From: Parcubacteria group bacterium LiPW_30
GTDB taxonomy: Bacteria; Patescibacteriota; Minisyncoccia; Phycocordibacterales; VMEP01
DNA: 57,042 nucleotides
Assembly: GCA_007375595.1 (NCBI GenBank)
Contig: VMEP01000001.1
Coordinates: 623,089 to 680,130 of the forward strand
Direction: 5' to 3'
In this document: in pieces, positions 3,241-38,688 of the stretch
Layout of the letters: each line of letters starts with the position of its first letter
How positions within the stretch are numbered: position 1 is the first letter of the stretch
Program-made: the position numbers and the translations under genes
The notes under the pieces: generated by a model
What the model saw: only the letters and a program-made list of their open reading frames with translations
What the model was told of the DNA's origin: nothing
Databases searched by the model: none

Positions 3241-3356
3241 ACTTTTTCTCCTGAAAAACACGATAAAATTCTGCTGAATTTTTCTCTACTCGCGCCGTCG
3301 CGCTCCGCCCGCCTGCGCGTACACGCTGGCAGGTAAGGTTTTTCAAAAGAAAAAGT
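3241..3356. repeat. TGCT-loop structured repeat, copy D, with a nested cctgc..gcagg palindrome
   Basis: Arms 3241-3259 and 3338-3356 (17/19 inverted); core aaaattc-tgct-gaatttt...ctactcgcgccgtcgcgctccg shared with copies at 4873, 35173 and 38599. Confidence 0.8.
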
Positions 3357-3441
3357 TTGGGCTTTCAGGAAAACGCAACAAAATATAAATACTCAATGTT
3401 TTTTAGAGAGCCGAAATGCGAATTACGCAACAAATCAAAAT

Positions 3442-3479
3442 AAAAAAACCCTGCATCTCTGTATAAGCAGATGCAGGGT
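3442..3479 (-). terminator. hairpin plus T-tract downstream of the putative DGR-target gene 1
   Basis: 11-bp stem accctgcatct/agatgcagggt (3448-3458, 3469-3479) followed by T7 on the minus strand. Confidence 0.75.
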
Positions 3480-3514
3480 CCGTTCAAAAGACCCGAGTGA
3501 CTGAGTCCCGAGTA

Positions 3515-4114
3515 CTACTTGCCGGAAACAGGGACACCGGAAAGAAACCAGCCATCGTGCCAGACGCAGTCGTCGCGGTCGCAGAGCACGCTCCGCTTGC
3601 TGAACCAGCGGCTGAACGCCAGGCAGCAATTGTTGCCCCACTGTGTGCCGTTCGGATGCTCGTCGGCAAAGGCCGGGTCGGCTTCGTTCACGGCAGCTTG
3701 GGCGCGCGGGTCCGACACGAGGCCGTATTGCGCGAGAAACGCTGGGACCTCTTTCGCCGGCACGAAGCGCCTGGTCGGGATGAAATACACGTCAACTTCG
3801 TCACCTTCACCTTGCGGCATTGAGGCAACTGTGTCGTCGCTCAAGTACTTGTTGCGGCCCGTGGCGTTGATCGCTTCCATCGGCGTGCGAGTGCGGTCGA
3901 CGCGGACGCGACGGACGATGATGTCGTTCTGCGCTTCGACGTGCTTGCGGAAAACCGCGACCATCTCATCGAAAGCCATATTCCCTGGCATCTTGAGAAC
4001 GTTCTGCACTGCTTCGAGCGGAAGGCCGGACTCGCGAAGTTTCGTCGCGAGTCGGTCATTAATCTGGCCGATTTGGCCGCCAGTGATGGACTGGGTCCTG
4101 ACAGATGTTGTCAT
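3515..4114 (-). CDS. hypothetical protein with a DGR variable-region-like (CLec-type) C-terminus, target candidate 1
   Basis: AAGGA 7 nt before ATG 4114 (MTTSVRTQ); C-terminus CCLAFSRWFSKRSVLCDRDDCVWHDGWFLSGV is encoded largely by NNC codons; GC-richer than its neighbours. Confidence 0.7.
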   Translation of the reverse strand: MTTSVRTQSITGGQIGQINDRLATKLRESGLPLEAVQNVLKMPGNMAFDEMVAVFRKHVEAQNDIIVRRVRVDRTRTPMEAINATGRNKYLSDDTVASMPQGEGDEVDVYFIPTRRFVPAKEVPAFLAQYGLVSDPRAQAAVNEADPAFADEHPNGTQWGNNCCLAFSRWFSKRSVLCDRDDCVWHDGWFLSGVPVSGK

Positions 4115-4210
4115 TGCGTTATCCTTTTCCGTTGCGCTGTACGACTCGACCCGAACGGGTTTCGCCACAGCAGAGAAGGGCCTATATGCTATAAGCCATT
4201 TTCTGCTATG
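4115..4210 (-). promoter_or_regulatory. conserved structured 5' leader, copy 1
   Basis: Plus strand cgctgtacgactcgacccgaacgggtttcgccacagcagagaa (4135-4177) aligns with 14838-14882. Confidence 0.65.
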
Positions 4211-4298
4211 ACGAACACATGCTAAAAATTAAAGAACTATCCTAGTATAAAAACATATGTTTGTAGTAAAGTCAATAATACGTAATATTAAAAATAAC

Positions 4299-4331
4299 AA
4301 AAAAGCTGTCCTTTTTAGGACAGCTTTTTTT
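4299..4331. terminator. rpsP terminator (bidirectional shape)
   Basis: aaaaagctgtcct-tttt-aggacagcttttt perfect inverted repeat. Confidence 0.8.
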
Positions 4332-4348
4332 AGATAGAAAATTTAAAA

Positions 4349-4822
4349 TTATGCAGCTGGTGCTTCTTCTACAGGAGCTTCAGCAACTGCCTCAGCTGGA
4401 GTTTCTGCTACCACCTCAACTGGTGCTTCAGCCGGAGCCTCTTCTACTACCGGTACTTCAGCAGGGATTTCTTCAGGAGCAGGAGTTGCAACTGGTGCTG
4501 GTGCAGGTGTTGCAGGAGCTTCTACTTTAGCTGGTTCATCTTTTTTAATAGGGCTCTTTTTAGGCAAAACGTTTATTTTCTTCCCAGCAATAATTTTTTT
4601 CTCAACTAGGAAATTATGCATTGTGTCTGAAGGCAAAGCTCCGTGTGACATCCAGTGTAAAACACGGTCAGCCTTAATAACGAAGTTCCCGAGCTTAGGT
4701 TCATAAGAACCGATGACCTCAACGAAGTTACCCGTCTTTGGGCTTTCGCGGTGATCAACAACAACCACGCGGAAGTGCGGGCTGTTCTTTCGTCCTATTC
4801 TTTGTAACCTAATTTTTAACAT
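4349..4822 (-). CDS. rpsP: 30S ribosomal protein S16 with an Ala/Pro/Glu-rich C-terminal tail
   Basis: MLKIRLQRIGRKNSPHFRVVVVDHR...EVIGSYEP; the true start is ATG 4822, not GTG 4876. Confidence 0.96.
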   Translation of the reverse strand: MLKIRLQRIGRKNSPHFRVVVVDHRESPKTGNFVEVIGSYEPKLGNFVIKADRVLHWMSHGALPSDTMHNFLVEKKIIAGKKINVLPKKSPIKKDEPAKVEAPATPAPAPVATPAPEEIPAEVPVVEEAPAEAPVEVVAETPAEAVAEAPVEEAPAA

Positions 4823-4872
4823 GCAGGCAATACTAATAGAAATGGCCCGATAGGTCAAGTTTATGTCTCTGT

Positions 4873-4964
4873 GCACACACCACTAAAATACACGCGTAAA
4901 ATTCTGCTGAATTTTCGCTCTGCTCGCCTCGCCAGTCTGCGCAAGGTATTTTAGTGGTGTGTGC
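4873..4964. repeat. TGCT-loop structured repeat, copy A
   Basis: Perfect 19-bp inverted arms gcacacaccactaaaatac (4873-4891) / gtattttagtggtgtgtgc (4946-4964) around a 54-nt core with aaaattc-tgct-gaatttt. Confidence 0.85.
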
Positions 4965-4981
4965 GGAAAAATAAAATGCAT

Positions 4982-5146
4982 AAAACGCGCATAAAACTTT
5001 GCTAAGTTTTTGCTATGCTCGTGTCACGCATAATTTCTTGCTAGAAATTTGCGCGACCCCGACTCGGCTCGTCAGCCTCCGTCTCTCAATTGCTTCACTT
5101 ATCGCAATTGAGCGTCGCACTGCGCAATGTTTTTAAAAACAAAAGC
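4982..5146. repeat. TGCT-loop structured repeat, compound copy E
   Basis: aaaac-gcgcat-aaaactt-tgct-aagtttt-tgctatgctcg ... ctgcgcaat-gtttttaaaaacaaaagc, containing a second aatttct-tgct-agaaatt hairpin and ctcaattgc..gcaattgag. Confidence 0.7.
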
Positions 5147-5252
5147 AGGGACTAGATAAAGACAAGAATATCCTATCCAAGAGCACCCCGGTAGAGGCTC
5201 TAATCACCCAATCTAACCAATTTTAGCCACTTTTGTGTTATTATTTGAACCC

Positions 5253-7238
5253 ATGAAAAAGCATACTGATAAACATCATAAAGTGGAGCATAAAAAGGCT
5301 CCTATAAAAGAACACGCCCAAAAGCACCACGAACACACTGTGGAGGGCACTATCACCGTCAGTTTCAAGGGTATTGGTTTTGTTCGTATTGAAGGAGAAG
5401 AGGAATCAATAGAAGTCTCTGCTAATTCACTAAATACTGCGCTTCATGGTGACCGAGTTAAGGTTTCTGTTCACGGCAAAGGACGCAACGGGCAACCACA
5501 AGGTGAAGTTACTGAAATCCTACTTCGGGCAAGATCTGGCTTTGCTGGCACCATAGAAAAAGACCGTGATGTCTATTACCTTATTCCACAAGACCAACGT
5601 GTTTACGTTGACCTTGTTATTCCAAAAGATGATTTAGGGGAAGCAAAAGAGGGAGACAAGGTTTTTGTCGCATTCATTGAGTGGACCGATCCAAAGAAAA
5701 ATCCTATTGGTAAGGTTCTCCGTGTTTTGGGTAAGCCAGGAGAACACGATGCAGAAATGGTTGCTATTGTTTTGGAATCTGGTTTTGATACTGGCTTTCC
5801 AAAAGAAGTTGAGAACGAATCAAAAAAACTTGAAGAAAAAGGTATCACTGAAGATGATTTAAAGGGTCGTCGTGATTTTCGTAACACCACAACATTCACA
5901 ATTGACCCAGAAGATGCCAAAGACTTTGACGACGCTATATCAATTCAAGATTTAGGCGGTGGTGTTTATGAAATCGGTGTACACATCGCCGATGTCTCTC
6001 ATTATGTTCGCCCGGGAACAGAGATTGATAAAGAAGCAATGAAGCGCACGACTTCTATATATCTCGTCGACCGCACAATTCCAATGCTTCCCGAAGGGCT
6101 TTCCAATGGATTATGTAGTTTAAACGCAAACGAAGACAAACTAACCTTTAGTGCTGTTTTTAAAATTGATATGCAGGGGAAAATATCTGACCATTGGTTT
6201 GGTCGCTCTGTTATAAAATCAAACAAACGCTTCACCTACGAAAATGCCCAGGAAACTATCGACAGCGGCTCCGGCGAGTACTACGAAGAACTCGTAATCC
6301 TAAACAAGATTGCTAAAAAACTAAAACAAAAACGTTTTGACGAAGGGGCTATTTCTCTTGAACAAGAAGAAGTGCGATTTAAACTAGACGAAACAGGACG
6401 CCCTGTATCTATTTACAAAAAAGTTCGTGGTGATACCCACAAGCTCGTTGAGGAATTTATGCTACTCGCTAACCGCGAAGTTGCCTCGTTTGTCGCCAAA
6501 AAACACGAGAACGAAGAAGGTGTTTTTGTTTATCGCATTCACGACGAACCAAACACAGAGCGTATTCAAAACCTCGCAATATTCGTTAAGAGCTTAGGTT
6601 ATGACCTAAAAATGACCGACGGAAAAACAACCTCAAGAGACATAAACAATCTTCTAGAAAAACTCGAGGGCACAAGCGTAAAAGACATGATTCAAACCGC
6701 TGTTGTCCGCTCAATGGCAAAAGCAATTTATACAACTCAAAACATTGGCCACTTTGGTTTGGGTTTTGAATTCTATACACACTTCACCTCTCCTATCCGT
6801 CGTTATCCAGACACGATGGTTCACAGACTTTTAGCGCGATATTTAAATAACGAAAAAATAGACGCGAAGGAATGGAAGTTTTACGAAAGAATGTCTACCT
6901 TTTCATCACAACGAGAAAAAGAAGCTTCTGACGCTGAGCGTGGCTCAATCAAATACAAACAAGTGGAATATATGTCGGAACGCATTGGACAAGTTTTTGA
7001 CGGCGTAATTTCTGGGGTTACTGAGTGGGGTTTCTATGTTGAGGAAAAAGAGACGAAGTGTGAAGGTATGGTTCCTTTACGAACATTAAACGATGACTTC
7101 TATAATTTTGAAGAAAAACGCTACCGCTTGGTTGGCGAAAAAACGAAAAAAATATACTCTCTCGGAGATAAAATAAAATTCAAGGTTGAAAAAACAGACC
7201 TTGGAAGAAAAACTATTGATTACTCTTTGGTAAATTAG
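5253..7238 (+). CDS. rnr: ribonuclease R
   Basis: CSD domains, RNB domain (TFTIDPEDAKDFDDA, HFTSPIRRYPD) and a C-terminal S1 domain; ATG 5253 preferred over the track start 5235. Confidence 0.96.
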   Translation: MKKHTDKHHKVEHKKAPIKEHAQKHHEHTVEGTITVSFKGIGFVRIEGEEESIEVSANSLNTALHGDRVKVSVHGKGRNGQPQGEVTEILLRARSGFAGTIEKDRDVYYLIPQDQRVYVDLVIPKDDLGEAKEGDKVFVAFIEWTDPKKNPIGKVLRVLGKPGEHDAEMVAIVLESGFDTGFPKEVENESKKLEEKGITEDDLKGRRDFRNTTTFTIDPEDAKDFDDAISIQDLGGGVYEIGVHIADVSHYVRPGTEIDKEAMKRTTSIYLVDRTIPMLPEGLSNGLCSLNANEDKLTFSAVFKIDMQGKISDHWFGRSVIKSNKRFTYENAQETIDSGSGEYYEELVILNKIAKKLKQKRFDEGAISLEQEEVRFKLDETGRPVSIYKKVRGDTHKLVEEFMLLANREVASFVAKKHENEEGVFVYRIHDEPNTERIQNLAIFVKSLGYDLKMTDGKTTSRDINNLLEKLEGTSVKDMIQTAVVRSMAKAIYTTQNIGHFGLGFEFYTHFTSPIRRYPDTMVHRLLARYLNNEKIDAKEWKFYERMSTFSSQREKEASDAERGSIKYKQVEYMSERIGQVFDGVISGVTEWGFYVEEKETKCEGMVPLRTLNDDFYNFEEKRYRLVGEKTKKIYSLGDKIKFKVEKTDLGRKTIDYSLVN

Positions 7239-7300
7239 ATTTGCCTAAAATAATTAAGTTGAGTTATATTAAAATCTGTTGTTTTTAGGAGAAAGCTAGT

Positions 7301-7525
7301 ATGGATGTTATCGCACCTTCGGGAGATGGATTTTGCCCAGCATGTCACGGGGACGCCATTTATTTCAAACAACTCAACGAAGAAAGGACGGATAAAGATA
7401 TTAAAATAACTCGTCTTTATCACTGTGTTTGTGGTTATAGAGCGAAAGTTGTAACCAATGGCCGAAACATACTCTCTTGCAAGAACCCATCTCCGCAAGA
7501 AGTAGAATCTCTACACGCTTTGTAA
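7301..7525 (+). CDS. small Zn-ribbon-like protein
   Basis: AGGAG at 7287-7291; CPAC...HCVC motifs; converges on the 7542-7565 hairpin. Confidence 0.65.
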   Translation: MDVIAPSGDGFCPACHGDAIYFKQLNEERTDKDIKITRLYHCVCGYRAKVVTNGRNILSCKNPSPQEVESLHAL

Positions 7526-7541
7526 AAAAGTGTCAAACAAA

Positions 7542-7565
7542 AAAACCCGCCAGCTGGCGGGTTTT
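7542..7565. terminator. bidirectional terminator/palindrome between convergent small genes
   Basis: Perfect 24-bp palindrome aaaacccgccagctggcgggtttt. Confidence 0.75.
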
Positions 7566-7585
7566 ATTATTTATGCCACGAATGG

Positions 7586-7876
7586 CTAAATTGTGAACGG
7601 AGTATTCATCATTTCTATGAATTCTTTTTCTCCGACCTTAGGAACATCATCTCCCGCGTGAAGATACTGTCTACCACACTTACGACAAGCCGCAGTGCGA
7701 TAAAGGAATGCCCCGTTAAACCAGCCGGAAACTTCGCGCACAACATCCCCACCGCAATTTTCCGCCTTGCACTTATTGCCAGGTAGTGGAATATTTTCTT
7801 CCTGGAATACCTTCATGGCCTTAAAAAACCTGGCCAAGTTTTCCTCAGACAGCTCAGGAAAATTTCTATTGCTCAT
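7586..7876 (-). CDS. small Zn-ribbon-like protein
   Basis: GGAGG at 7889-7885; CKAENC...CRKC motifs; upstream TTGACT-N17-TATCTT (7942-7914). Confidence 0.7.
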   Translation of the reverse strand: MSNRNFPELSEENLARFFKAMKVFQEENIPLPGNKCKAENCGGDVVREVSGWFNGAFLYRTAACRKCGRQYLHAGDDVPKVGEKEFIEMMNTPFTI

Positions 7877-7959
7877 GATTCGTCCCTCCAGTTATCAAGC
7901 CAAACCTGTCTTTAAGATATATACGCTAAACAAGCAAGTCAACCTTATCTAAATGATCA

Positions 7960-20034: not shown

Positions 20035-21099
20035 ATGGAAAATAATAACAATGAAGACAAAATAGAGTTAGAAGATATTCCGTCTGAACAAGAAGATCTT
20101 GATATTGACAATGCTTCTTATGAAATCAAAACCTATGGAGCTGATTTTACTATTGAAATTTTGTCAAAAAAATTTGATACAAAAGAAATCATAGTTCCAG
20201 ACTTTCAAAGAAAGTATGTGTGGCCTCCTAAAAAAGCAAGTCGACTAATAGAGTCCTTTTTACTTGGGTTACCGGTTCCTCAAGTATTTTTATACAGAGA
20301 AGAAGAAAATCAAGATTTATTAGTAGTAGACGGCCAACAGCGTTTAAAAACTATAAATTATTTTATTAAAGAGTTATTTGAAAACGAAACAGAATTTTAC
20401 CTAAGGGGTGTAAAACCAGAATGGGAGGGCAAAAAATATTCTACGCTAACCGAACCAGACAGACGAAGATTTAATAATTACATATTAAGAGCAACAATAT
20501 TTGAACAGGTTGATCCAAAAGATCACTCCAGTATTTTTGAAATTTTTGAAAGATTAAACACTGGGGGAATGCCCTTAAATGAGCAAGAAATAAGAAGGTG
20601 TGTTGTTCGTGGCAAGATAAATAGTTTTATAGAAGAATTAAATTTATATCCTAACTGGAGAAAATTACTTAAAAAAGAGTCACCTGATGCACGAATGAAG
20701 GACATAGAAATGATTTTGCGATTTTTTGCGTTATGGCAAAACTGGAAAGATTATAAAAAACCAATGAAGGATTTTGTTACGGAATTTATGAGAAAAAATA
20801 AAGATATCAGCGACGAAAAACAGACGGAATATTCTCAAGTGTTTAAAGATGTCGTAGATAAAATATATACTAACGTTGGTGAAGATGCTTTTAGACTAAA
20901 AGCTGGAATAAATATAGCAATTTTTGATTCAATCATGGCGGCACTAGCTCTTATTGGTGTTAATAACACCAACGACTTGAAAAGTAAAATAACAATACTT
21001 AAAACTAATAACGCATACCTAGACTCGGTATCAAAATCAACAACGGACTCAGATAGAGTAGAAGCTAGAATGAAACTAGCAATCCAGACTTTAAAATAA
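20035..21099 (+). CDS. DUF262 (ParB/Srx-like, GmrS-type) domain protein
   Basis: FQRKYVW, LIESFLLGLPVP, VVDGQQRL, IFERLNTGG; acidic N-terminus. Confidence 0.85.
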   Translation: MENNNNEDKIELEDIPSEQEDLDIDNASYEIKTYGADFTIEILSKKFDTKEIIVPDFQRKYVWPPKKASRLIESFLLGLPVPQVFLYREEENQDLLVVDGQQRLKTINYFIKELFENETEFYLRGVKPEWEGKKYSTLTEPDRRRFNNYILRATIFEQVDPKDHSSIFEIFERLNTGGMPLNEQEIRRCVVRGKINSFIEELNLYPNWRKLLKKESPDARMKDIEMILRFFALWQNWKDYKKPMKDFVTEFMRKNKDISDEKQTEYSQVFKDVVDKIYTNVGEDAFRLKAGINIAIFDSIMAALALIGVNNTNDLKSKITILKTNNAYLDSVSKSTTDSDRVEARMKLAIQTLK

Positions 21100-21564
21100 A
21101 TGAAATCTAGTCTGGCGGAAAAATACATAAAAAAAATAGAGCTAGCCATAGAAGATATTGATAATTTTTCTAATATCTCTGATTTAGAGAAATCTTATCT
21201 GGCAAAATTTTTAGTAGTTTTTATTTGTGGAATTTATGAGGAAATTATAGAGAACGTAATTTACGAACGAATTGATAAACTAAAAAATGTTGAAGTTAGT
21301 ACTTATATCAAAAAAACCGTATCTGGCACATTTCAGAACCCAAACATGGAAAAAATAAAAGATTTGCTGGGAAAATTTAACCCAGGGTGGAAATCGGAAA
21401 TAAGCAAATTACCTATAGAATCGCAAACCGCCATAGATAATATTATTACCCAGAAAAACTCCCTAGCGCACGGAAATGACGTTAACGTTACACTAAAAGA
21501 TATAAAAAGATATTATAAAGATTCTTTGTCTGTAATAAACAAAATAGATGACATGCTTCTCTAG
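21100..21564 (+). CDS. HEPN-domain protein (MAE_28990/RiboL-PSP-like)
   Basis: All-helical 154 aa with FLVVFICGIYE, FQNP and KNSLAHG (HEPN-type motif with K in place of R); abuts the DUF262 gene. Confidence 0.7.
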   Translation: MKSSLAEKYIKKIELAIEDIDNFSNISDLEKSYLAKFLVVFICGIYEEIIENVIYERIDKLKNVEVSTYIKKTVSGTFQNPNMEKIKDLLGKFNPGWKSEISKLPIESQTAIDNIITQKNSLAHGNDVNVTLKDIKRYYKDSLSVINKIDDMLL

Positions 21565-23790: not shown

Positions 23791-24354
23791 TTATGGCTTG
23801 AAAAATATGGCCATTCTACGCCAATCGTGCTTAAACGACTTGATATCCACAAAGAGGTCTTTCCCTTGTTCTTTAGAGAGTGATTCTGGCTCATTGAAGT
23901 AAAACCCTGTGAGTTGACCTTTCCTTTCAGGAAACTCAACTCCATCATTTTCTTCATAACCAGTTAATACCACCATGTGAAATTTTATCTGGCCGAGGGT
24001 ATATTTTGAAACAGAAACAATTACTGGACGTCCATCTTTAAGTTCATCGTGTATTTTTTGCAAACCTAAAATTTCTCCTATCTTCTCCCCTCTTTCAGAA
24101 TTTAAACCGTACTCCTTAGCTGTCTTCACAAAGTAATCATGGAACCATCCTGATGGACCATACCCTCCATCCTTCTTCCCTTTTTCACACATCTCCAAAA
24201 GTGACGGAGTCTTTATCATTCTAGTATTTTGCAAAATACTAGAATGATAATCTAACACCATTTTTAAACACGTCATGCCACAAGCTCTCGGCATCCAATA
24301 TGGGTTGTCGTTTACATCTAAGAATTGAGAATAGTATGGTACGTTAAGTTTCAT
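23791..24354 (-). CDS. C39-like papain-fold peptidase
   Basis: VPYYSQ, ACGMTCLKM (catalytic Cys), FHMVVLTGY (His), YFNEP; 1-nt overlap with the CDPS stop. Confidence 0.8.
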   Translation of the reverse strand: MKLNVPYYSQFLDVNDNPYWMPRACGMTCLKMVLDYHSSILQNTRMIKTPSLLEMCEKGKKDGGYGPSGWFHDYFVKTAKEYGLNSERGEKIGEILGLQKIHDELKDGRPVIVSVSKYTLGQIKFHMVVLTGYEENDGVEFPERKGQLTGFYFNEPESLSKEQGKDLFVDIKSFKHDWRRMAIFFKP

Positions 24355-28234: not shown

Positions 28235-28236
28235 GT

Positions 28237-30045: not shown

Positions 30046-30048
30046 GTT

Positions 30049-31662
30049 TTAAATGTTAACATTTTTTGTCTTACTAAAAACATTTATTTCTCCACGGTGT
30101 TTAGGTGTGACCCAAAATCCCATATAGCGACCGAGCATCAATCTTGTTTGAGCCTCAAGACCTGGGATAGCGCCAAATATTGTTATCGTAACTGGAACTA
30201 AAACCCATTGAATAATCATGAAAAAATTATCTCTCCATGTCCTATTTGAGGGCCTTGGTGGTAGGAAAGAATAAGAAATTGCTGCTGTAAGAAAAAGACC
30301 GAGCATTGAGAGGACCATTAAATCTCTCGTGATTATTGGAAGATTATAAGAAAGAATTGTTTGGTTAAAAATACTTCCACCAATCATTACCGGCAACCAA
30401 CCAAGCAAGAATATTATTAGTGGGTTTGTTGAAAGCGACCAATACCCTTCAAGTTGAACCAAAGAAATTTTTATTTTTTGAGCCAAAGGAATCCTTTTAT
30501 TCTTAAGAAAATTCATAAGAATGTAAGGAACGTTTTCTGACCCATAAGCCCAACGACGATGTTGTTTGTAAACATTCTTCATTGTCTGCCACAGGGTTGG
30601 CGCTAAATTGGCGTCCATAGAAACAGGATATGCAATTGAAACTATTTCGTAATTACCATCATGTGCGACCAAAAGATTCCAGAAAATTCTCGAATCTTCA
30701 GAAACCATATTCTTCTGCCAATACCCTGCTTCATAAAGAGTTTTAAACGAAACAGCGTGAGATGAGAAGGTAACAAGTTTTTCCGGCCTTTCCTGTTGAA
30801 TCATTTGCCAAAAAGTAGAAGACATCGCAGCAACACGAGAAGGAGCAGGTGCGTCCCAGATATTATTGTTATACAAAGGAACTGGCTGGAAAGATGATTG
30901 ATATGGTCTTTCGCAAGTCAAAAAATGCCAAGTAAGACATGTGAAATAATTCGGATAAACCACTGTGTCACTATCAAAGGCAGATACTAAAACATCTTCG
31001 TAAGAAATATTTTTTTTGTCTAAAATTAGTTTACGGGCTGTTTCGGCCATATAAGATATATTTGACCCCTTACCCGCCATCTCACCTAAAACCCCGTCCG
31101 GATGAACTGTGAGCAAAACATCATAAAACTTGTCTTTATATTTTGAGATAATTGCCTCCCCCCGAGCAATCGCCTCTTTACCTGCCTTCTCTTCCGCCCC
31201 CAAAACAACAATAAGCTTCTTTAAGTCATAGTTTGATTCAAACAATTTCTCAACAGTATTATTAAGGACTTGTTCACTCTCATCATAATAAGGAAGAACA
31301 ATCATGTGATAAACATGTTCATACTTAAGATTAGAAAGCATTAGGGGCCAATCCGCTTTTAAGTTGTGCTTAATCCTTTTCCAATTATAACGAAGATGGT
31401 AAGAAAGGTGGGCTGTTTTCAAAACCCAATACACATCAAACGCAATAATAAATATTGCCGCCACCGTTGGTGCAAAAATGGAAAAAATGATTATAGCTAG
31501 AATTGTCCCCCAAGCCATAAGCCCAGGAATCATTTCAAGAAATCTATAAAGACGATAGTCTTCTTTAGAAAGATCGGTGGCGCGACCCACATGAAAATAA
31601 GGAGTATTAATCGACTCCTTATTCACCAAAGAAATATTAAGTTTTTTTTCTTCTCCTTCCAT
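30049..31662 (-). CDS. GT2 processive glycosyltransferase (integral membrane)
   Basis: FDSD, SED and QHRRW motifs with flanking TM helices. Confidence 0.85.
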   Translation of the reverse strand: MEGEEKKLNISLVNKESINTPYFHVGRATDLSKEDYRLYRFLEMIPGLMAWGTILAIIIFSIFAPTVAAIFIIAFDVYWVLKTAHLSYHLRYNWKRIKHNLKADWPLMLSNLKYEHVYHMIVLPYYDESEQVLNNTVEKLFESNYDLKKLIVVLGAEEKAGKEAIARGEAIISKYKDKFYDVLLTVHPDGVLGEMAGKGSNISYMAETARKLILDKKNISYEDVLVSAFDSDTVVYPNYFTCLTWHFLTCERPYQSSFQPVPLYNNNIWDAPAPSRVAAMSSTFWQMIQQERPEKLVTFSSHAVSFKTLYEAGYWQKNMVSEDSRIFWNLLVAHDGNYEIVSIAYPVSMDANLAPTLWQTMKNVYKQHRRWAYGSENVPYILMNFLKNKRIPLAQKIKISLVQLEGYWSLSTNPLIIFLLGWLPVMIGGSIFNQTILSYNLPIITRDLMVLSMLGLFLTAAISYSFLPPRPSNRTWRDNFFMIIQWVLVPVTITIFGAIPGLEAQTRLMLGRYMGFWVTPKHRGEINVFSKTKNVNI

Positions 31663-31708
31663 ATTTACAGTCTATCGTGCAGGACTGATTCTGCTTGATA
31701 GATATACT

Positions 31709-31783
31709 TGGAGCCGCCTCTCGGATTTGAACCGAGGACCCTCGCTTTACAAAAGCGACGCTCTACCACTGAGCTAAGGCGGC
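31709..31783 (-). tRNA. tRNA-Thr(TGT)
   Basis: GCCGCCT/AGGCGGC acceptor stem, anticodon arm tcgct-tttgtaa-agcga, GGTTCAAATCC T-loop, encoded CCA; 75 nt. Confidence 0.95.
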
Positions 31784-31901
31784 TAATACAATTTTCTCAA
31801 ATTGTACGCCCGTCCACCTTGAAAGCAAGGTGGTTTAGGGCTAATACAATCTGTTCCAGATTGTTCGTCCGAACATTTTGTCATACAAAATGTTTTAGAG
31901 C
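31781..31901. repeat. modular palindromic repeat, family F/G, copy F
   Basis: ggctaatacaattttctcaaattgtacgccc and ccgaacattttgtcatacaaaat recur inverted at 36753-36848. Confidence 0.85.
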
Positions 31902-31908
31902 AATTTAA

Positions 31909-32307
31909 CTAAACTATTTTATCAACTCCCCCATTCCTGAAACTATCCTTATGTGCAGATATGTCTTTCAAGAAAAAAGAAGCGGTACCTCTTTCACTAT
32001 CTCCGTTATTGGTTGATGGGATGGACATTGAAAAATGTTCTACTCTTTCATCAATAAACTTCTTTGCTATATGGTAAAAATTTACCAAAACACGAGAAGC
32101 AACAACAGAAACTTTTTGTAATTTACCAAGAACAAACGATGAGGTTTTATCAAAAGTTTTCTCCCAATCAACAACTGAAAAAATCTCGCTTATTTCATAT
32201 TCCTCTTCTGCCACCACCCTACCTCTCCTTATGTTCCATACCCTAACAAAAACCATGCCGGAAATTGCTACTGCAAAAACTAGTGAAAATATGAATGGTA
32301 AAAACAT
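31909..32307 (-). CDS. hypothetical membrane protein
   Basis: N-terminal TM helix, SFFLKDI motif near the C-terminus; co-oriented after tsf. Confidence 0.75.
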   Translation of the reverse strand: MFLPFIFSLVFAVAISGMVFVRVWNIRRGRVVAEEEYEISEIFSVVDWEKTFDKTSSFVLGKLQKVSVVASRVLVNFYHIAKKFIDERVEHFSMSIPSTNNGDSERGTASFFLKDISAHKDSFRNGGVDKIV

Positions 32308-32321
32308 ACTATATCAATATA

Positions 32322-32915
32322 CTACCTATCTGAAGAGAAACGTGCAAAGCGGGATATCTCAATCCTCTCTCCAAACTTCTGAATAGCTTCATCTACCAAG
32401 GCCCCAACCGTAACATCACCATTTTTCACAAACGGCTGTTCAAGCAAGGCACGCTCTGCAAAGTAAGTATTCAACTTACCTAAAACAACCTTCTCCTTAA
32501 TAGCTGGGTCAGTTTTACCAGAAGCCTCCGCCTCTTCTTCAAAAACCTTTTTTAAGTCATTAACCGTCTCTTCTGAAACCTCATCACGGCTAACAAATTC
32601 TGGGTTTGCCGCGGCAATATGCATCGCTATATCATAAGCAAGTTTTTTAAACTCTTCGTTTTTAGAAACGAAATCAGTTTCAGAAGAAAGCAAAACCATT
32701 GAACCAACCGCACCACCTAAGTGGATATAAGATTGAATCGTCCCAGAACCCAATGTTCTGTCACCTTTCTTACCAGCAATATCTTTACTTTTACGTTTCA
32801 AGATTTCAATTGCCTTATCTTTGTCTCCTTGAGCTTCCTCTAGAGCTTTTTTACACTGCATAACAGACACACCGGTCATGTCACGCAATTCCTTAACTTG
32901 ATCCATCGTTACCAT
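32322..32915 (-). CDS. tsf: elongation factor Ts (short form)
   Basis: VKELRDMTGVSVMQCKKAL, ETDFVSKN, LLEQPFVK. Confidence 0.96.
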   Translation of the reverse strand: MVTMDQVKELRDMTGVSVMQCKKALEEAQGDKDKAIEILKRKSKDIAGKKGDRTLGSGTIQSYIHLGGAVGSMVLLSSETDFVSKNEEFKKLAYDIAMHIAAANPEFVSRDEVSEETVNDLKKVFEEEAEASGKTDPAIKEKVVLGKLNTYFAERALLEQPFVKNGDVTVGALVDEAIQKFGERIEISRFARFSSDR

Positions 32916-32945
32916 GGTTTAAATAAAGAGCTTATGAATAAATTA

Positions 32946-33656
32946 CTAAACAACCTCACGCATTGACATACCTTCTTGGTATGCATTCACAATGCTCTCA
33001 ACAAAAAGCTGGATGCTTGAAGTTGAGGCGTCATTACCAACAATTGGGTATGTAATAACAGAAACGTCACAATCAGAGTTTGAAAGACTAATAACTGGAA
33101 CCTTAACATTTTTTGCTTCTGCTATCGCAATTGCCTCTTTCTTAGAATCAATAACAAACATTGCGCCTGGTATGCTCTTTAGAGAAATCAAACCAAAAAA
33201 ATATCGGTTTAATCTTCCAAGTTCTAGGTCAATAACTAAACGTTCCTTTTTTGTGTAGCGAGCGATTGTCCCCTTTTCTTTTTCATCATTAATCTGCAAA
33301 AGTCTCTCAACGCGTTTTCTGATTTCTGAAAGGTTGGTCAAGGTACCGCCAAGCCAGCGCTCTGTAACAAACGGCATATCAATTGACTGCGCTGCTTCTT
33401 TTACAATATCTCGTGCTTCTGGCTTAGAACCAACAAAAATTATTTGCTTACCCTGTTTACCTAGTTCTCTAACAAAGTCACATGCTGTTTCAAGCATTTG
33501 GCTAGTTTTTTCAAGGTCTATAACATCAGAGTGATTTTTTGACCCTAAGAGTGATTTCTTAATTGAGGGATGGCGTCTCGTACGAGAATAACCAAAATGA
33601 GCCCCTGCCTTAAGCAATGCTTCCATGTTTGGTGTTTCTTTAGTATTTTTCTGCAT
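32946..33656 (-). CDS. rpsB: 30S ribosomal protein S2
   Basis: LLKAGAHFG, ERWLGGTLTN, PIVGND. Confidence 0.97.
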   Translation of the reverse strand: MQKNTKETPNMEALLKAGAHFGYSRTRRHPSIKKSLLGSKNHSDVIDLEKTSQMLETACDFVRELGKQGKQIIFVGSKPEARDIVKEAAQSIDMPFVTERWLGGTLTNLSEIRKRVERLLQINDEKEKGTIARYTKKERLVIDLELGRLNRYFFGLISLKSIPGAMFVIDSKKEAIAIAEAKNVKVPVISLSNSDCDVSVITYPIVGNDASTSSIQLFVESIVNAYQEGMSMREVV

Positions 33657-33842
33657 ATTTATATATTTATCCCGTTAGAAGTTATCATCTTAGTCGTTTT
33701 TAACAAAAAAAGAAAGCCGCAAGGCGATTCCCGTAGGTTAAAACGCTATATATACAACAAAACCAGCCGAACTTCTAATGGGACTATACTAACAAAAAGC
33801 TCTGTTTGAAGCAACCCACAAGCCCCAACAGTCCAATATTGA

Positions 33843-34832
33843 TTATTCTTCATCCCCACCGCTTTCCCCCACAGCCGGTAATACCCCCTCAAATTTTTCA
33901 AATGTCCTTATGATTGGATCGAGATTGCCAGCCAATATTCCTTCAATATTGTGCCACGTCTGCTTAATACGATGGTCAGTAACACGATCTTGAAGAACAT
34001 TGTATGTGCGAATTTTTTCAGAACGATCGCGTGTCCCGATTTGGCTCTTTTTTTCAGCAGAAAGTTTATTAAATTCTTCTTCTTCCTTCAACATTGAAAG
34101 GCGCGCTGAAAGCATCTCAAAAGCTTTTTCACGGTTTTTTAATTGACTTCTCTCGCTCTGACAACGCACCGCAACTCCCGTTGGTTTGTGGATGAGACGA
34201 ACGGCTGTTTCAACTTTATTAACATTCTGCCCTCCGGCACCACCAGAGCGCGAAAGCTCCATCTCCACATCACTTGGAGATATTGTAAAAGAAAAACGAG
34301 TACGTATAGGTAAGACAGAAACAGAGGCTGTCGATGTGTGTACTCGGCCAGATTTTTCTGTCGCAGGAATTCTTTGAACTCGATGAACTCCTGTTTCAAA
34401 CTGAAGCGCTTCATAAGCCCCCTTACCTTTTATCTCAAAAGACGCCTCCTTATAACCACCAAGCTCGCTTCTTGATTCATCAAGTCTCGTCACCGACCAA
34501 TTACGTGATTCGGCATACCTCTGATACATGACAGTAAGTTCTTCTGCGAAAAGTGCAGCCTCTTCCCCTCCCGCTCCAGCGTACACCTCTAAAATAGCTC
34601 CTGTTGGTTTGGCAACTTCCTCTTTTTCTGAATCAAAAATTGTTTCTATTTGTTTTTCTATTGTTTCTTTTTGCTCACTAATTCTTTTTAATTCTTCCTC
34701 TCCTAGTTCATGAACCGAAGGGTCGTGCTCAACCATTGAGCGAACCTCTTCTTCCTCTTTAAGCAATTGTTCAAACTGTGTCGCAAGATATGCGGTTTTA
34801 GAGTTTTTTTTCCAGCTTTCAAGATCTTGCAT
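33843..34832 (-). CDS. prfA: peptide chain release factor 1
   Basis: [18 protein letters not shown] (PxT), [20 protein letters not shown]. Confidence 0.95.
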
Positions 34833-34889
34833 AATTTTGATAGATAAAGAAAAAACAGCAATTATCTCGCTGTTTTTCTTACTGATTAT

Positions 34890-35123
34890 CTAAGACTTCT
34901 TAGCTACTTTCTTAACTGGTTCTGCTGCTGCCCTTCGCTTCTTGAATCTTTCAACGCGACCAGCGGTGTCAATAACTTTTTCGTTGCCTGTATAGAATGG
35001 GTGGCAAGAACTACAAATTTCAACGTTTATCTCTGGCAAGCCAGAAGAAACGACATAAGTCGCTCCACAGGCGCAGGTGGCCTTGATTTCATCATTATAT
35101 TTAGGATGGATATCTTTCTTCAT
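34890..35123 (-). CDS. rpmE: 50S ribosomal protein L31 (Zn-binding type)
   Basis: MKKDIHPKY...CACG...CSSCHPFYTG...GRVERF; true start ATG 35123. Confidence 0.96.
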   Translation of the reverse strand: MKKDIHPKYNDEIKATCACGATYVVSSGLPEINVEICSSCHPFYTGNEKVIDTAGRVERFKKRRAAAEPVKKVAKKS

Positions 35124-35172
35124 AAGCCCGTACTTTACTAGAAAGTCTACTATTTTGCAAACTTTTATTCTA

Positions 35173-35263
35173 TATCTGCTTTTAAAATACACGCCTAATT
35201 TTCTGCTGAAAATTGGCTATACTCGCGCCAGTCGCGCTCCGTAATGTATTTTAAAAGCAGATA
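35173..35263. repeat. TGCT-loop structured repeat, copy B
   Basis: Perfect 18-bp arms tatctgcttttaaaatac/gtattttaaaagcagata around a core with aattttc-tgct-gaaaatt and ctatactcgcgccagtcgcgctccgtaat. Confidence 0.85.
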
Positions 35264-35283
35264 ATGGGGATATTAAAAACAAA

Positions 35284-36687
35284 TTAAACCCCCTTCAAGA
35301 AATCAATATTAGCTTGAATATCTTCAGCTTTCTGTAAAACCTGTGTTCCATAAAAGGAGTTGGCTGGTTTTTGATTATCACATTTTCTACCAGAGTAATA
35401 TCTACAAGCCGCGTTTCTTTCAGCGCTATAACTACCACTCACCGCCCCAAGGTCTGATAAATATATCGCTGTTGCGGTAAACGAGTGTTCTGGGTTCCAT
35501 GGATTTGCTTCGTTCTGAGAAACACCAACAGCGCTTGCTATGCGCTTTTTAAAAATTTCCCATGTTGAAGGGATGAATTGTGAAGGGCCCATTCCCCCAC
35601 CATAACCGCGCGATGACGACCAAATAGCTTTAGGTGGACATGATACTGGTGTAATTTTCCAATCCAACCCTAATCTATTTGTAATATCTTTAAACGGTTC
35701 CGTGTCTCTTGGAGACTTCATTATCTTCTCAAAAAATGTCCCCGTGTTTTTACCAACACCATCTCCTGTATCAATACTCGACAAAATACATGAGCCCTGG
35801 TTTTTACCAAGATCAGATTCTTGGGTAAGGATTGCCAAAATAAGTACTGGGCGAATACCTGTCTTATCGCCCGCAAAGTTAGCATATTCAAGCGCCTTTG
35901 CGAAAGGAATTCCTTCGGTGTCACGAAGCTTAAAAAGAGCTGCCCTAATTTGTGCGGCCCTTTTTTGTCTTTCGCTCAACACCGCTTGATATCCACTAGC
36001 TTCGGTTTTTGTAACAGCTAAAAGTTTTTTCTTCTCAGATTCTGTTTGAGCAATTGTTTTTTTCTTCACTTCTACAACATACTTCGCATCAGCTTCTTCG
36101 TTTTTTTGTTTGTCTAACTTTTGACGCTCTTCTTCTGTAATAGCCTTAACTTCTCGCACAACCGTAAAATGTTCCTTCATTTGGCTTTTTATTGAATCGT
36201 ATGAATCAATATCCTGGAAAAATTCTGAAACACTTTCTTCGGCAAAAAACACCTCCGCTAAAGTTTTTGAATCTATTTCATTTGTTTTTCTTATAATCTG
36301 AGCAAGTGATCGACGTCCATCATCAAGCTTCACCTCCAGGGTTTTAATTTTTTTACTCTTATCGGCGATTTGAGCCCCGAGTTTTGAAATTGCTAAATTT
36401 TTTTGCCTTATCATTAATTCCGCTTCTTTTATTTTTGCGGTAAGGATAGTTATATCTCCTTGAATGGTATTTGCTTTTTGGCGGGTTTCATCCAAAACCC
36501 TCTGCCAAGTATCAATCTCTTTTTGAAGAGCGTTGTATTCTGCTTGAAGTTTTGCCTCTTGTTGTGCCACCTGCTCTGCCGATTGAGCCTCAACGTTTAA
36601 TGATGACGGCGCCAAAAGGCCACCGAGTAAAAATATCGATAAAAATAATTTGAAAAAGAAAAAATTAAATCTCATACAAAAAAGCAA
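35284..36687 (-). CDS. secreted coiled-coil protein with a C-terminal lytic transglycosylase (MltB/SLT_2-like)
   Basis: Signal peptide, long coiled coil, catalytic QES and GGMGPSQFIPSTW. Confidence 0.85.
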   Translation of the reverse strand: MLFCMRFNFFFFKLFLSIFLLGGLLAPSSLNVEAQSAEQVAQQEAKLQAEYNALQKEIDTWQRVLDETRQKANTIQGDITILTAKIKEAELMIRQKNLAISKLGAQIADKSKKIKTLEVKLDDGRRSLAQIIRKTNEIDSKTLAEVFFAEESVSEFFQDIDSYDSIKSQMKEHFTVVREVKAITEEERQKLDKQKNEEADAKYVVEVKKKTIAQTESEKKKLLAVTKTEASGYQAVLSERQKRAAQIRAALFKLRDTEGIPFAKALEYANFAGDKTGIRPVLILAILTQESDLGKNQGSCILSSIDTGDGVGKNTGTFFEKIMKSPRDTEPFKDITNRLGLDWKITPVSCPPKAIWSSSRGYGGGMGPSQFIPSTWEIFKKRIASAVGVSQNEANPWNPEHSFTATAIYLSDLGAVSGSYSAERNAACRYYSGRKCDNQKPANSFYGTQVLQKAEDIQANIDFLKGV

Positions 36688-36752
36688 AAATCCGAGAAAC
36701 TCTTTGTCCTCCTGTCTTTATATTCTATCCCAACCAGCCCATTGAAGCCACA

Positions 36753-36848
36753 GCCCTAAAATATTTTGTATGACAAAATGTTCGGGCTAGCCCGGGTGTT
36801 TGTACCCAGACGCCCTAGGGCGTACAATTTGAGAAAATTGTATTAGCC
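36753..36848. repeat. modular palindromic repeat, family F/G, copy G (inverted)
   Basis: Reverse complement carries the 31-bp unit identical to 31781-31811 and a near-identical tcata-loop hairpin unit. Confidence 0.85.
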
Positions 36849-36900
36849 TTAAATTAAAAAAGAAGGTTTTTGGCCTTCTTTTTTAACAAAACTATTCAAG

Positions 36901-37563
36901 TTACTTTTCTTCCTCGGAAGCTTCTCCCTCTTCTTTCTTACCCTTCTTTTCAACTTCAATTGATGATAGGTCGATAGATGCAACTGGAGCCTCCTCCTCT
37001 TTTGTTGCCTCCGAAATAAGGGCAACGATTTCCTCCCCCTTAGTTATAGCTGTAACACCTTTTGGCATAACGATATCACTAACTACAATATGACTATCAA
37101 TAGTTGCAAGCGAGGAAACGTCAATCGAAATATTGTGTGGCAAATCCTGTGGAAGAGCCTCAACTTCAATCTCGTGCAAAACCTTAACCAAAACACCACC
37201 AAAATCTTTAACCGCAGGAGAAACACCGATAAATTCAAGAGGAACTCCAACTTGAGTCTTTTTATCTTTTTCAACTACGTAAAAATCAACATGAACTGGT
37301 TCGTGACGAATTGGGTCATACTGAACCTCGTGCACCAAGACGTCTGTATTACTATTTAAACCTTTTAGGCGAACGATAGATGACTCCCCTGCGTCTTTCA
37401 GGACTTTCTTAAATTGAATCGTGTCTACAAAAAACGAAGTTGCCTTTGCTTTTGGTCCGTAGAAAACAGCAGGAATACGCCCGCTTTTTCTTACTTTTGC
37501 GAGATCCGCCTTAACATCTCTTTCTTCTATTGCTAGTTCAAACATGGCGGACATTATACACAA
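36901..37563 (-). CDS. rplY: 50S ribosomal protein L25/CTC
   Basis: GRIPAVFYG, HEVQYDP...HVDF, EALPQDLP, acidic tail. Confidence 0.95.
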   Translation of the reverse strand: MCIMSAMFELAIEERDVKADLAKVRKSGRIPAVFYGPKAKATSFFVDTIQFKKVLKDAGESSIVRLKGLNSNTDVLVHEVQYDPIRHEPVHVDFYVVEKDKKTQVGVPLEFIGVSPAVKDFGGVLVKVLHEIEVEALPQDLPHNISIDVSSLATIDSHIVVSDIVMPKGVTAITKGEEIVALISEATKEEEAPVASIDLSSIEVEKKGKKEEGEASEEEK

Positions 37564-37613
37564 CCAAATAAAATTGTGAAGCCTTTAAATAATAGATATT
37601 TTTTAGGTGAAAA

Positions 37614-38480
37614 TTAAACACTACTAAACATCGTTATGTAATTTTTTACGAAATTTTTCAGATCCTCAACAACGGATGCATCATATTTATACGGAGCAAC
37701 CTCATTTTTCTCTATACTTTCATCTATCGCCTCTTTTGTTGATTTCTGATAAAGAACCCTCATTTCCGTACTAATGTGGATAATTCTTATTCCAGCACGA
37801 ATAGCTTCTTTAAAATCTTCCGGGGATATTCCAGAACCACCGTGCAAAACAAGTGGTGTCTTAATAGCATTTTTTAGGTCTCTAATCGCTTCTATGTTTA
37901 GCGCTGGATTTCCAATACCTTTAATAAACCCGTGAATGTTTCCGACTGACGGCGCGAATAAATCTATTCCAGTAGCATTTATAAAATTTTCCGCTTCTTC
38001 TTTTTTTGTAAAGTTCTTCAAATCAATTCCTTCGGGAATAGCATCTATCACCTGTGACGAAGTTCCGATATAACCAACCTCTGCTTCAACGAGAACGTCT
38101 TTACCACTCGCACGAGCATAATCAACACATCTTTTTGTAATTTCAATATTCTCTAAAAGAGGCAACTTTGCCCCATCAAAAATAACCGCATCAAACGAAG
38201 CGTCAATCGCTTCTTTAGTACGTTCAAACGAATACGAATGGTCTGCATTCAAAAAAATCGGAAAATCATATTCTTCTCGCAAGCTACGAACTAAAGCAAC
38301 AGCCTGCTCGACTCCAATATAATCTCTCTCCCCCTCAGAAACACCGACAATAACGGGCATATTCAATTCTTTTGCCGCTTCAAAAACACCTTTTAACATC
38401 TCTAAGTTTGAAATATTAAAATGACCAATTGCAATACCCTTGTCGTCCGCTTCTTTAATAACCTCGCGTAGTGATTTCAT
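37614..38480 (-). CDS. fba: class II fructose-bisphosphate aldolase
   Basis: NADHS, DGAK, EAEVG, SVGNIHG, VLHGGSG. Confidence 0.9.
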   Translation of the reverse strand: MKSLREVIKEADDKGIAIGHFNISNLEMLKGVFEAAKELNMPVIVGVSEGERDYIGVEQAVALVRSLREEYDFPIFLNADHSYSFERTKEAIDASFDAVIFDGAKLPLLENIEITKRCVDYARASGKDVLVEAEVGYIGTSSQVIDAIPEGIDLKNFTKKEEAENFINATGIDLFAPSVGNIHGFIKGIGNPALNIEAIRDLKNAIKTPLVLHGGSGISPEDFKEAIRAGIRIIHISTEMRVLYQKSTKEAIDESIEKNEVAPYKYDASVVEDLKNFVKNYITMFSSV

Positions 38481-38598
38481 TTGAAAATTATTATAACACG
38501 TGGTTTTCCCGAAACCATATTACTTGTATTTGTATTCCAATATCCCAAAATACTCTCGAAAAACACGGGACTGTTGATTTTCCTTCTCTTCTATCTCC

Positions 38599-38688
38599 GC
38601 TTTTATTTTTAAAAACATTACGGAGCGTGGCGACGCGAGTATAGCAATCCGCCAGCAGGCGGATATGCGCGTTTTTAAAAACAAAAGC
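38599..38688. repeat. TGCT-loop structured repeat, copy C (inverted)
   Basis: 17/18 inverted arms; the minus-strand core atccgcc-tgct-ggcggat-tgctatactcgcgtcgccacgctccgtaat matches copy B with compensatory changes. Confidence 0.85.

Follow-up and report, generated by a model that had tools for sequence, protein, structure and literature searches.

An apparently undescribed family of Y-shaped palindromic repeats in Parcubacteria-type genomes

The repetitive extragenic palindromic (REP) sequences of Proteobacteria, with their composite forms BIME and REPIN and their associated transposase RAYT, are single hairpins of 20-40 nt whose core is conserved at the level of a species or genus. Roles as hairpins at gene ends have been shown for REP and for Correia elements. 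In integrons and in the CTX phage, attachment sites (attC and attP) fold into hairpins, and in parvoviruses the terminal hairpins, such as the inverted terminal repeat (ITR) of adeno-associated virus (AAV), are long palindromes enclosing two short ones, a three-way junction read by an HUH nuclease. Bacteria of the Candidate Phyla Radiation (CPR) have very small genomes, thought to be poor both in mobile elements and in known non-coding RNAs. Here we analyze a dispersed repeat in 57,042 nt of the Parcubacteria group bacterium LiPW_30 (contig VMEP01000001.1), a stretch that we call the window. The repeats apparently represent an undescribed non-coding family of ~90 bases, which recurs across numerous genomes within a single group of tiny bacteria from groundwater.

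A repeat family with a three-way junction

A sequence-only reading of the window had noticed five copies of the repeat, and all five (A to E) are present where it placed them, four on the + strand and E on the - strand. A covariance model built from the five copies and run over the whole window with filters off returned these five only (E 8e-23 to 6e-08); next-best came reverse-strand matches to these copies, limited to the hairpin, and plain palindromes of no relation. With a second model, for which 98 relatives were used, no further copy emerged in the window, where the density is thus ~1 element per 11 kb.

We scanned one genome per species (185,579 species) for the pattern CGCNTA-N6-TGCT-N8-GCTMTRCTCG. 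The scan returned at least 117 stretches (given L-numbers below; X-numbers denote sequencing runs), whereas by our own estimate ~17 matches were expected by chance. Among the matches listed, 116 of the 117 are attributed, by record title where given, to metagenome-assembled genomes (MAGs) of Patescibacteria/Paceibacterota (Parcubacteria-type), the named groups being Giovannoni-, Nomura-, Kaiser-, Yonath-, Taylor-, Adler- and Zambryskibacteria and Minisyncoccia. The lone outsider among them, a Galbitalea MAG (L093), is not confirmed by the covariance model. Several genomes hold 4-6 loci each, CAZOFV01 having six. Covariance searches of these loci yielded 98 + 50 copies (148), with individual GC contents from 0.32 to 0.64; the scan beyond the genome proposed by the sequence-only reading thus gave far more than a few copies, with strong covariation and no match in Rfam.

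The same pattern had 0 matches in 2.9 million viral contigs, and copy D had none by blastn against phage and plasmid records. With Rfam 15 at gathering score, tRNA-Thr alone matches in the whole window; at E up to 10 on 3150-5250 the elements remain unmatched, save for a chance miRNA hit over copy B (21.9 bits, the gathering score being 100). ARAGORN and the Rfam tRNA model identified no tRNA-like element, the tRNA/tmRNA scan finding only the tRNA-Thr at 31709-31783. We found no description of the element in the literature on palindromic repeats and structured RNAs of Patescibacteria, Parcubacteria or CPR; the TIGR-Tas arrays met there are tandem guide arrays, different from the element.

The unit consists of a long outer stem (P1) bearing two inner hairpins (P2 and P3), which together form a compact Y-shaped three-way junction of ~90 nt, extending in some copies up to ~200 nt. 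The structure statistics rest on an alignment of 98 copies. The three helices pair in 92.1% of cells, and double-sided changes were observed in 34 of the 37 base pairs. The covariation score is 0.669, against 0.165 in shuffled alignments (0/500 shuffles reach the observed value), and sliding the partners by one to three columns lowers it to 0.09-0.13. RNAalifold on its own predicts the same three helices. A mutual-information scan over all column pairs recovered every modelled pair, plus three new pairs between the junction strands (C-G 63/A-U 24; U-A 88/C-G 4/A-U 2; G-C 87/A-U 3/C-G 2). Because these strands covary and pair with each other, P3 is a longer irregular helix and the junction linkers are only 2, 1 and 0 nt; the junction strands had previously been taken as single-stranded, which was mistaken.

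P2 has a constant size, with 3+7 bp, one bulged T and a TGCT loop. The proximal helix of P3 conserves a T·C mismatch (86/98) and two single-base bulges, and its distal part ranges from 4 bp to >100 nt (L104, L117, L044, L083, L001 and L094). Around the junction ~35 nt are near-invariant across the whole bacterial class, and sequence therefore matters besides structure. The earlier proposal that structure rather than sequence is selected was thus right about the stems, whose pairing is conserved, and missed the strong conservation of the junction. Similarly, the boundaries AAA(A/T)AC and GT(A/T)TTT hold in this genome, but family-wide only the closing C-G pair of P1 is kept (79/98), the rest of the arms being variable. 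In 44 of 133 copies, compared with 1/133 with shuffled flanks, complementarity runs on outward as an extra helix of 8-22 bp, which in one subfamily lies beyond a conserved internal loop (TTTCTY / YTGCGAC). Whole hairpins reach 150 nt and -70 kcal/mol, with stems of 18-45 bp and z scores of -5 to -14.

Pairing in the inner helices is nearly all Watson-Crick: 975/979 cells of P2 conform, and a single cell is G·U. When P2, P3 and the extra junction helix are pooled, G·U makes up 0.5% of pairs and A·C 0.6%, compared with 6.1% G·U among the stem pairs of 44 tRNAs from the same loci. The search pattern left the stem positions open (N), which means that wobble pairs were not selected against in the sample. 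Pairs commonly flip (AU<->UA, 53/42; CG<->GC, 49/31). The outer stem decays, in contrast, with 13% of P1 unpaired, and its mismatches are asymmetric: in 91 copies aligned gap-free we counted 63 A·C/C·A vs 20 G·T/T·G (64 vs 14 by copy, 12 vs 2 by arm lineage). The bias does not depend on whether neighbouring genes are co-directional with the element or opposed to it, so the strand that keeps wobble pairs is set by the element itself, and we rejected the idea that wobble pairs track the direction of local transcription. The strand favoured for folding is the complement of the one first read.

The strict pairing may mean that the core has to pair on both strands or at the DNA level, and the P1 asymmetry suggests single-stranded use of the whole hairpin on one of its strands. 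The latter agrees with the earlier idea of a single-stranded DNA or RNA substrate, except that the strand indicated is the opposite one. The near-absence of G·U, together with an orientation that is neutral with respect to genes (see below), argues against an ordinary cis-acting RNA; the pattern appears to fit a folded-DNA substrate better, while being compatible with an RNA that has its own promoter. Among RNA sequencing runs none contained the window stretch, and no element contig was recovered from three metatranscriptomes of a sample that contains L007, although these libraries are small and the evidence is weak. The combination of strict Watson-Crick pairing with a one-strand wobble bias is unusual, and could serve to separate DNA-level from RNA-level structure in other repeats.

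Copies in the window and turnover among relatives

The copies share the order of parts anticipated by the sequence-only reading, with long inverted arms, a constant TGCT loop on a changing 7-bp stem, a conserved motif and a second GC hairpin: an outer inverted repeat, RCGC-N-TA, the 7-bp stem with its TGCT loop, (G/T)CT(A/C)T(A/G)CTCG, a short GC hairpin, CT(G/C)CG(C/T)AA(G/T)G, and the second arm. The stem under the loop is AAAATTC/GAATTTT in A and B, AAAACTT/AAGTTTT in C, AATTTTC/GAAAATT in D and ATCCGCC/GGCGGAT in E. Arms are self-complementary within a copy (100% over 19 nt in B and D, 94% over 18 nt in E), and all copies fold much better than shuffled sequences on both strands (z -4.7 to -8.4).

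Copy A (3241-3356, + strand, 116 nt; 49 bits, E 1.5e-09) has its 5' arm at 3241-3259, P2 at 3265-3271/3276-3282 around the TGCT loop at 3272-3275, the motif TCTCTACTCG at 3283-3292, the P3 hairpin at 3293-3302, an extra hairpin at 3308-3333 and the 3' arm at 3338-3356. Its outer P2 helix is one base pair shorter, by a deletion on both sides, and the same paired deletion characterizes A-type copies in L071, L120 and L121. Beside it, at 3357-3415 (+), lie arms CTTTCAGGAAAAC / GTTTTTTAGAGAG without a core. These had been counted as a sixth, degenerate copy at about 3360-3413; with 14.3 bits and E 0.5 the match is not significant, and the segment is at best, and uncertainly, the decayed remnant of a copy.

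Copy B (4873-4964, +, 92 nt; 97.5 bits) has perfect 19-bp arms (4873-4891 / 4946-4964), P2 at 4898-4904/4909-4915 with the loop at 4905-4908, and the motifs GCTCTGCTCG (4917-4926) and CTGCGCAAGG (4937-4946). Copy C (4982-5146, +), which belongs to a C/E subfamily, has lost its 5' arm; its P2 is at 4993-4999/5004-5010, the loop at 5000-5003, GCTATGCTCG at 5012-5021 and the 3' arm at 5129-5146, the latter identical to the + strand sequence of the E arm 38671-38688. In the loop of its second hairpin, P3, sits a nested 88-nt variant unit that we call type II (5026-5113, +), composed of ACGCATA-ATTTCT-TGCT-AGAAAT-TTGCGCGACCCCGACTCG-hairpin-CTCCGTC-hairpin. Copy D (35173-35263, +, 91 nt; 103 bits) has arms at 35173-35190 / 35246-35263, P2 at 35197-35203/35208-35214, the loop at 35204-35207, GCTATACTCG at 35216-35225 and CTCCGTAATG at 35237-35246. 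Copy E (38599-38688, -, 90 nt; 103.1 bits) is inverted, with arms at 38671-38688 / 38599-38616, P2 at 38658-38664/38647-38653, the loop at 38654-38657, GCTATACTCG at 38636-38645 and CTCCGTAATG at 38616-38625.

Comparison of occupied with empty sites showed that copies are gained, lost and swapped among genomes ~90% identical, as expected of the dispersed, mobile repeat first proposed. Contig CAZOFV010000002 (L091, L027, L121) is syntenic with the window at ~90-95% nucleotide identity. There, the orthologue of copy C is intact (L091:5527-5617, 100.9 bits) and lacks the 88-nt insert, copies A and B are absent from L091, and a copy with near-identical B arms and core is found between rpmF and rnhB (L027:5561-5651). 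The D site, between a gene of 467 aa and the rpmE promoter, is occupied in 10/10 related contigs, always in one orientation. Its occupant changes: in the six contigs aligned it is D-type in three, A-type (with the paired P2 deletion) in two and of a third type in one, and in the other four the scores resemble those of the A-type and third-type occupants. A type II unit of 93 nt without outer arms was found in the last codons of prfA in L120 (4250-4350), L122 and L127; in L120 release factor 1 thereby gets a new C-terminus, with 324 aa instead of 329.

Contigs from sequencing runs show further differences between strains. In run X4 a strain lacks 3227-4295 (1,069 bp, with copy A and a high-GC open reading frame (ORF)), another form has an L091-like arrangement in place of copy B, and a strain lacks 38508-38711 (204 bp, with copy E). 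Depth over the elements was 13-17 times the genome depth in run X1 and >100 times in X2. The occupied and empty sites indicate that the unit, together with its arms, moves or is exchanged about as fast as species diverge.

Simpler palindromes are also present. At the rpmF-rnhB position, where L027 has a full B-type element, the window has plain perfect hairpins at 13402-13439 and 13482-13521; these two and 24213-24250 are perfect palindromes of 17-19 bp, one of them loopless, without the core. Two such coreless palindromes end in TTACGCG / CGCGTAA (the second in ..AATTACGCG / CGCGTAATT..). In other genomes, (T)GAATTAC(R)AAA occurs in the outer arms of some copies of the TGCT-loop family (8/143 vs 12/3000 in the background). 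The Y-shaped unit may nest in plain hairpin repeats, or leave them behind.

Gene context and possible explanations

Gene context was taken from crude ORF calls, and 68 copies could be classified by their flanking genes. The orientation of the element is neutral with respect to co-directional flanking genes (21 vs 19); 17 copies lie between convergent and 11 between divergent genes. Gene 3' ends are close, at a median of 33 nt from the element and within 30 nt in 53/115 cases, compared with a median of 98 nt for gene 5' ends. Copies cluster 5-35 nt past stop codons, with no preference for which end faces the gene (63 vs 52). Across the flanks of 133 copies, both sides considered, there is no promoter-like or T-run signal at a fixed position, and a terminator scan calls none of the elements an intrinsic terminator. 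Copies A and B lie 17 and 15 nt upstream of promoter-like sites firing away from them (TTGACC-17-TACAAT, of a KH-protein gene, and TTGACC-17-TAGTAT, of rpsP, respectively), so a cis-RNA role there, or membership of those mRNAs, is unlikely.

Copies also occur in pairs. Thirteen pairs are <300 nt apart, of which 9 are convergent, 1 divergent and 3 tandem (p ~0.001 vs the 25% convergent expected). Seven pairs were read through, and in six of them (L016, L062, L043, L051, L079 and L048) one partner is a variant with the outer P2 base pair changed on both sides, in the forms CGG/TCC, CGA/TTC and CGT/TAC.

We tentatively interpret the element as a non-autonomous mobile palindromic repeat, similar to REP and BIME, whose single DNA strand, once folded, would be read by a structure-specific enzyme with its gene elsewhere in the genome. 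The element would fold when one DNA strand, the complement of the orientation first read, becomes single-stranded, and the invariant junction, bulges, mismatch and loop would offer the recognition surface for the enzyme, following the same logic as REP/RAYT or attC/integrase. The action of the enzyme would be to copy, insert or exchange entire units in intergenic positions, for the most part directly after a gene and in many cases beside or inside other palindromes. Of this account, DNA as the folded form, its recognition by a protein and mobilisation by that protein are inferred.

Several observations weigh against this interpretation. The core is conserved class-wide, beyond the species or genus range usual for REPs and miniature inverted-repeat transposable elements (MITEs). 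P2 and P3 remain perfectly paired while P1 decays, which implies constraint on resident copies that a purely selfish element need not show. A strand-specific single-stranded stage tied to replication predicts an orientation bias relative to local GC skew, and there is none (80 vs 73). We did not find direct repeats indicative of target-site duplication in the flanks of 133 copies, nor clean insertion boundaries, occupied and empty forms differing by replacements or larger indels. Finally, the partner gene suggested earlier, a TnpA-Y1/RAYT or a reverse transcriptase (RT), did not appear nearby: we recognised no transposase, recombinase, HUH/Y1 or RT in the 57-kb window, and no such family recurs across the 877 ORFs drawn from 117 loci (~8 kb each), as judged by eye and clustering with no full hidden Markov model (HMM) scan for domains. 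All-against-all clustering of the ORFs gave housekeeping families alone, the largest cluster being mixed class I aminoacyl-tRNA synthetases at varying distances.

A first rival explanation is that the element is a structured RNA without coding function, made from the complement strand as a small RNA, processing signal or new self-cleaving ribozyme, its junction being a tertiary core or a protein-binding site. We regard this as unlikely. The conservation does resemble that of functional RNAs, with an invariant junction, bulges, mismatch and non-standard tetraloop, covarying stems and one expandable arm; P2 and P3 are kept perfect in resident copies while P1 decays; the core is kept across genomes with copies of 32 to 64% GC; and the P1 asymmetry (63 vs 20) corresponds to ~4-5% wobble on one strand, near the 6.1% of tRNAs. 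However, G·U is near-absent in P2 and P3, at 0.5% no more frequent than A·C, the orientation is indifferent to genes, the flanks lack any position-specific promoter or U-tract signal, and A and B stand upstream of promoter-like sites pointing away. Rfam holds no matching family, even at E up to 10, and the three metatranscriptomes of a sample with such a genome yield nothing, which counts for little given the small libraries. A hairpin serving the host at gene ends in either orientation, as a transcription barrier, a stabiliser of mRNA 3' ends or an RNase III site, would explain the clustering 5-35 nt after stop codons with either end facing the gene (63 vs 52), the very stable stems (18-45 bp, z -5 to -14), the further outer helix (44/133 copies vs 1/133 shuffled flanks) and a D site that is filled in 10/10 relatives though its occupant changes. 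For such a purpose a plain hairpin would suffice, leaving the invariant junction, loop, bulges and mismatch unexplained; the stem is followed by no T-run on either strand; and 11/68 copies, B, C and E being such cases, are located between divergent genes, where no transcript should end. We consider this improbable as the main explanation, though it could be a secondary role of a mobile repeat.

Copy A lies 14 nt inside the end of the 1,069-bp segment 3227-4295, which carries a high-GC ORF and is absent in another strain, and in L091 the ORF in that frame is replaced by a different one. Together with the single preferred strand, the conserved bulged bases and the variable terminal structure, this recalls an attC-like site of a gene-cassette system, in which a tyrosine recombinase would act on the folded strand to insert and swap the high-GC single-ORF modules of the window. 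Yet L091 carries the cassette without copy A; elsewhere the elements are not beside high-GC ORFs (0/230 adjacent vs 14/638 non-adjacent); and there are no arrays, no integrase in the window and no RYYYAAC/GTTRRRY boxes in the sequence of the copies, which makes such a system very unlikely. The least probable explanation, to which we give hardly any credence, is that the pairing is a mutational by-product, with quasi-palindromes corrected by intramolecular template switching and inert repeats under no selection. It would account for the exclusively Watson-Crick pairing, for the frequent transversion flips (AU<->UA, CG<->GC) without intermediates and for arms perfect over 18-19 bp, but it does not account for the ~35 class-wide invariant nt or for the conserved T·C mismatch and bulges, which template switching would erase, and it leaves unexplained both the unequal decay of P1 vs P2/P3 and the rule of convergent pairs.

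A broader hypothesis, more doubtful than the REP/BIME-like repeat that we favour, is that the element forms the nucleic-acid half of an undescribed system ancient in Paceibacteria, either a folded strand read by a new, conserved structure-specific enzyme or a new class of complement-strand RNA or ribozyme, whose function would keep resident copies intact. A core of ~35 nt that is shared class-wide, by many candidate lineages of Parcubacteria type, implies a reader conserved to the same degree, be it an enzyme or an RNA function. If the hypothesis is true, ultra-small bacteria would have a mobile or recombination system of a new kind, or else structured RNAs of a new class. The covariance model gives a handle for finding the partner through phylogenetic profiling, and is a marker for genome dynamics such as strain typing, rearrangement hot spots and assembly breaks.

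The window otherwise codes for housekeeping genes, a GmrSD/HEPN pair, three high-GC ORFs and large surface proteins. The high-GC ORFs (3515-4168, 10335-11000 and 14260-14874, all on the - strand; ORF1 to ORF3) encode 204-221 aa at a GC of 0.55-0.59, against ~0.39 for the genome, and none has a match in Pfam. Every one of them has a separate terminator and ORF2, where this was read, also a separate ribosome-binding site. They behave as modules that can be swapped: an ORF3-like gene (67% aa identity) takes the place of ORF1 in L091 within a conserved frame, formed by the terminator 3445-3470 and the upstream hairpin 4159-4216, and the ORF3 module is absent from L027. We discarded a general link between elements and high-GC ORFs, as none of 230 adjacent ORFs exceeds the GC of its locus by >0.10, compared with 14 of 638 others. 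A second hairpin family (14866-14954 and 4159-4216) is found just upstream of high-GC ORFs. Its member at 14866-14954 is also a three-way junction, with perfect 18-bp arms, 53 nt between them and z = -10.3; it was tried as a copy of the TGCT-loop family, whose geometry it has, and rejected, since its sequence is unrelated and its arms (TTTCRCCACAGCRGAGAA) are homologous to the hairpin 4159-4216.

At 20035-21564 (+), a protein with a GmrSD_N domain (E 6e-32) is directly followed by a RiboL-PSP HEPN protein (E 1e-15), both at a GC of 0.30, well below the surroundings; these two genes are probably an acquired defence pair. Two cysteine-rich ORFs between housekeeping genes, 2345-2668 (-) and 7586-7876 (-), encode 107 and 96 aa (GC 0.50 and 0.45) and are unmatched in Pfam; the 96-aa product has 94% aa identity in L027, the 107-aa one 31% in L091. 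Finally, 43912-57042 (-) is a run of large related secreted proteins, with GC climbing to ~0.5. It includes paralogue pairs with near-identical N-termini (43912-44511 and 46011-46685; 44508-46004 and 46669-48069) as well as ORFs of 1,018 aa and >1,984 aa.

Comparison with described systems

Among known systems, the element would appear to work most like REP and BIME, yet it departs from the features that define REP. With REP, BIME and REPIN it shares short extragenic imperfect palindromes in many copies, past gene 3' ends and in both orientations; frequent inverted pairs of two sequence types, comparable to the Y and Z types of REPs in BIMEs; conserved bulges and mismatches; one preferred folding strand; and a non-coding nature with a trans-acting partner expected. 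It differs in being a three-way junction of ~90 nt rather than a single short hairpin, in having a class-wide instead of a species- or genus-level core, in the absence from the alignment of a conserved GT(A/G)G head (GTAG/GTGG) at either end, and in that no RAYT was recognised in the window or in the 877 ORFs, in the search without a full HMM scan described above.

MITEs, such as Correia/CREE of Neisseria, RUP and BOX of Streptococcus and RPE of Rickettsia, are likewise non-autonomous repeats of ~100 bp with terminal inverted repeats and long hairpins, gained and lost among close strains and occasionally inserted at gene ends, as the type II unit is in prfA of L120. In MITEs, however, the ends are conserved and the centre is not, whereas in our element the arms differ between subfamilies around a conserved centre; the flanks of 133 copies have no target-site duplication, and we found no parent insertion sequence with these ends. 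The likeness to integron attC and the CTX phage attP hairpin consists of structure kept over stem sequence, a preferred strand, extrahelical bases, an internal mismatch and a terminal structure of variable length. Unlike attC, the elements are dispersed singly, lack R and L boxes (RYYYAAC...GTTRRRY) and conserve the centre rather than the ends, with no integrase in the window and no general link of cassettes to elements. GCGCATAA / TGCGCAATG also resemble the XerC arm of E. coli dif, and the repeated CTG resembles primase start sites; both likenesses were considered and dropped, the variable arms giving them no support.

Elements derived from IS200/IS605 (PATE) have subterminal hairpins without terminal inverted repeats and a strand bias relative to replication; ours has long inverted arms and no such bias (80 vs 73). 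Small three-way-junction RNAs (hammerhead, twister-sister, purine riboswitch) also combine a compact junction, invariant nucleotides and covarying stems, but the element has no Rfam match and none of their core motifs, G·U pairs are near-absent, and it has no consistent gene context. With the AAV ITR, it is the shape alone that is alike: the element is chromosomal, internal and bacterial, with no Rep gene and no sequence similarity.

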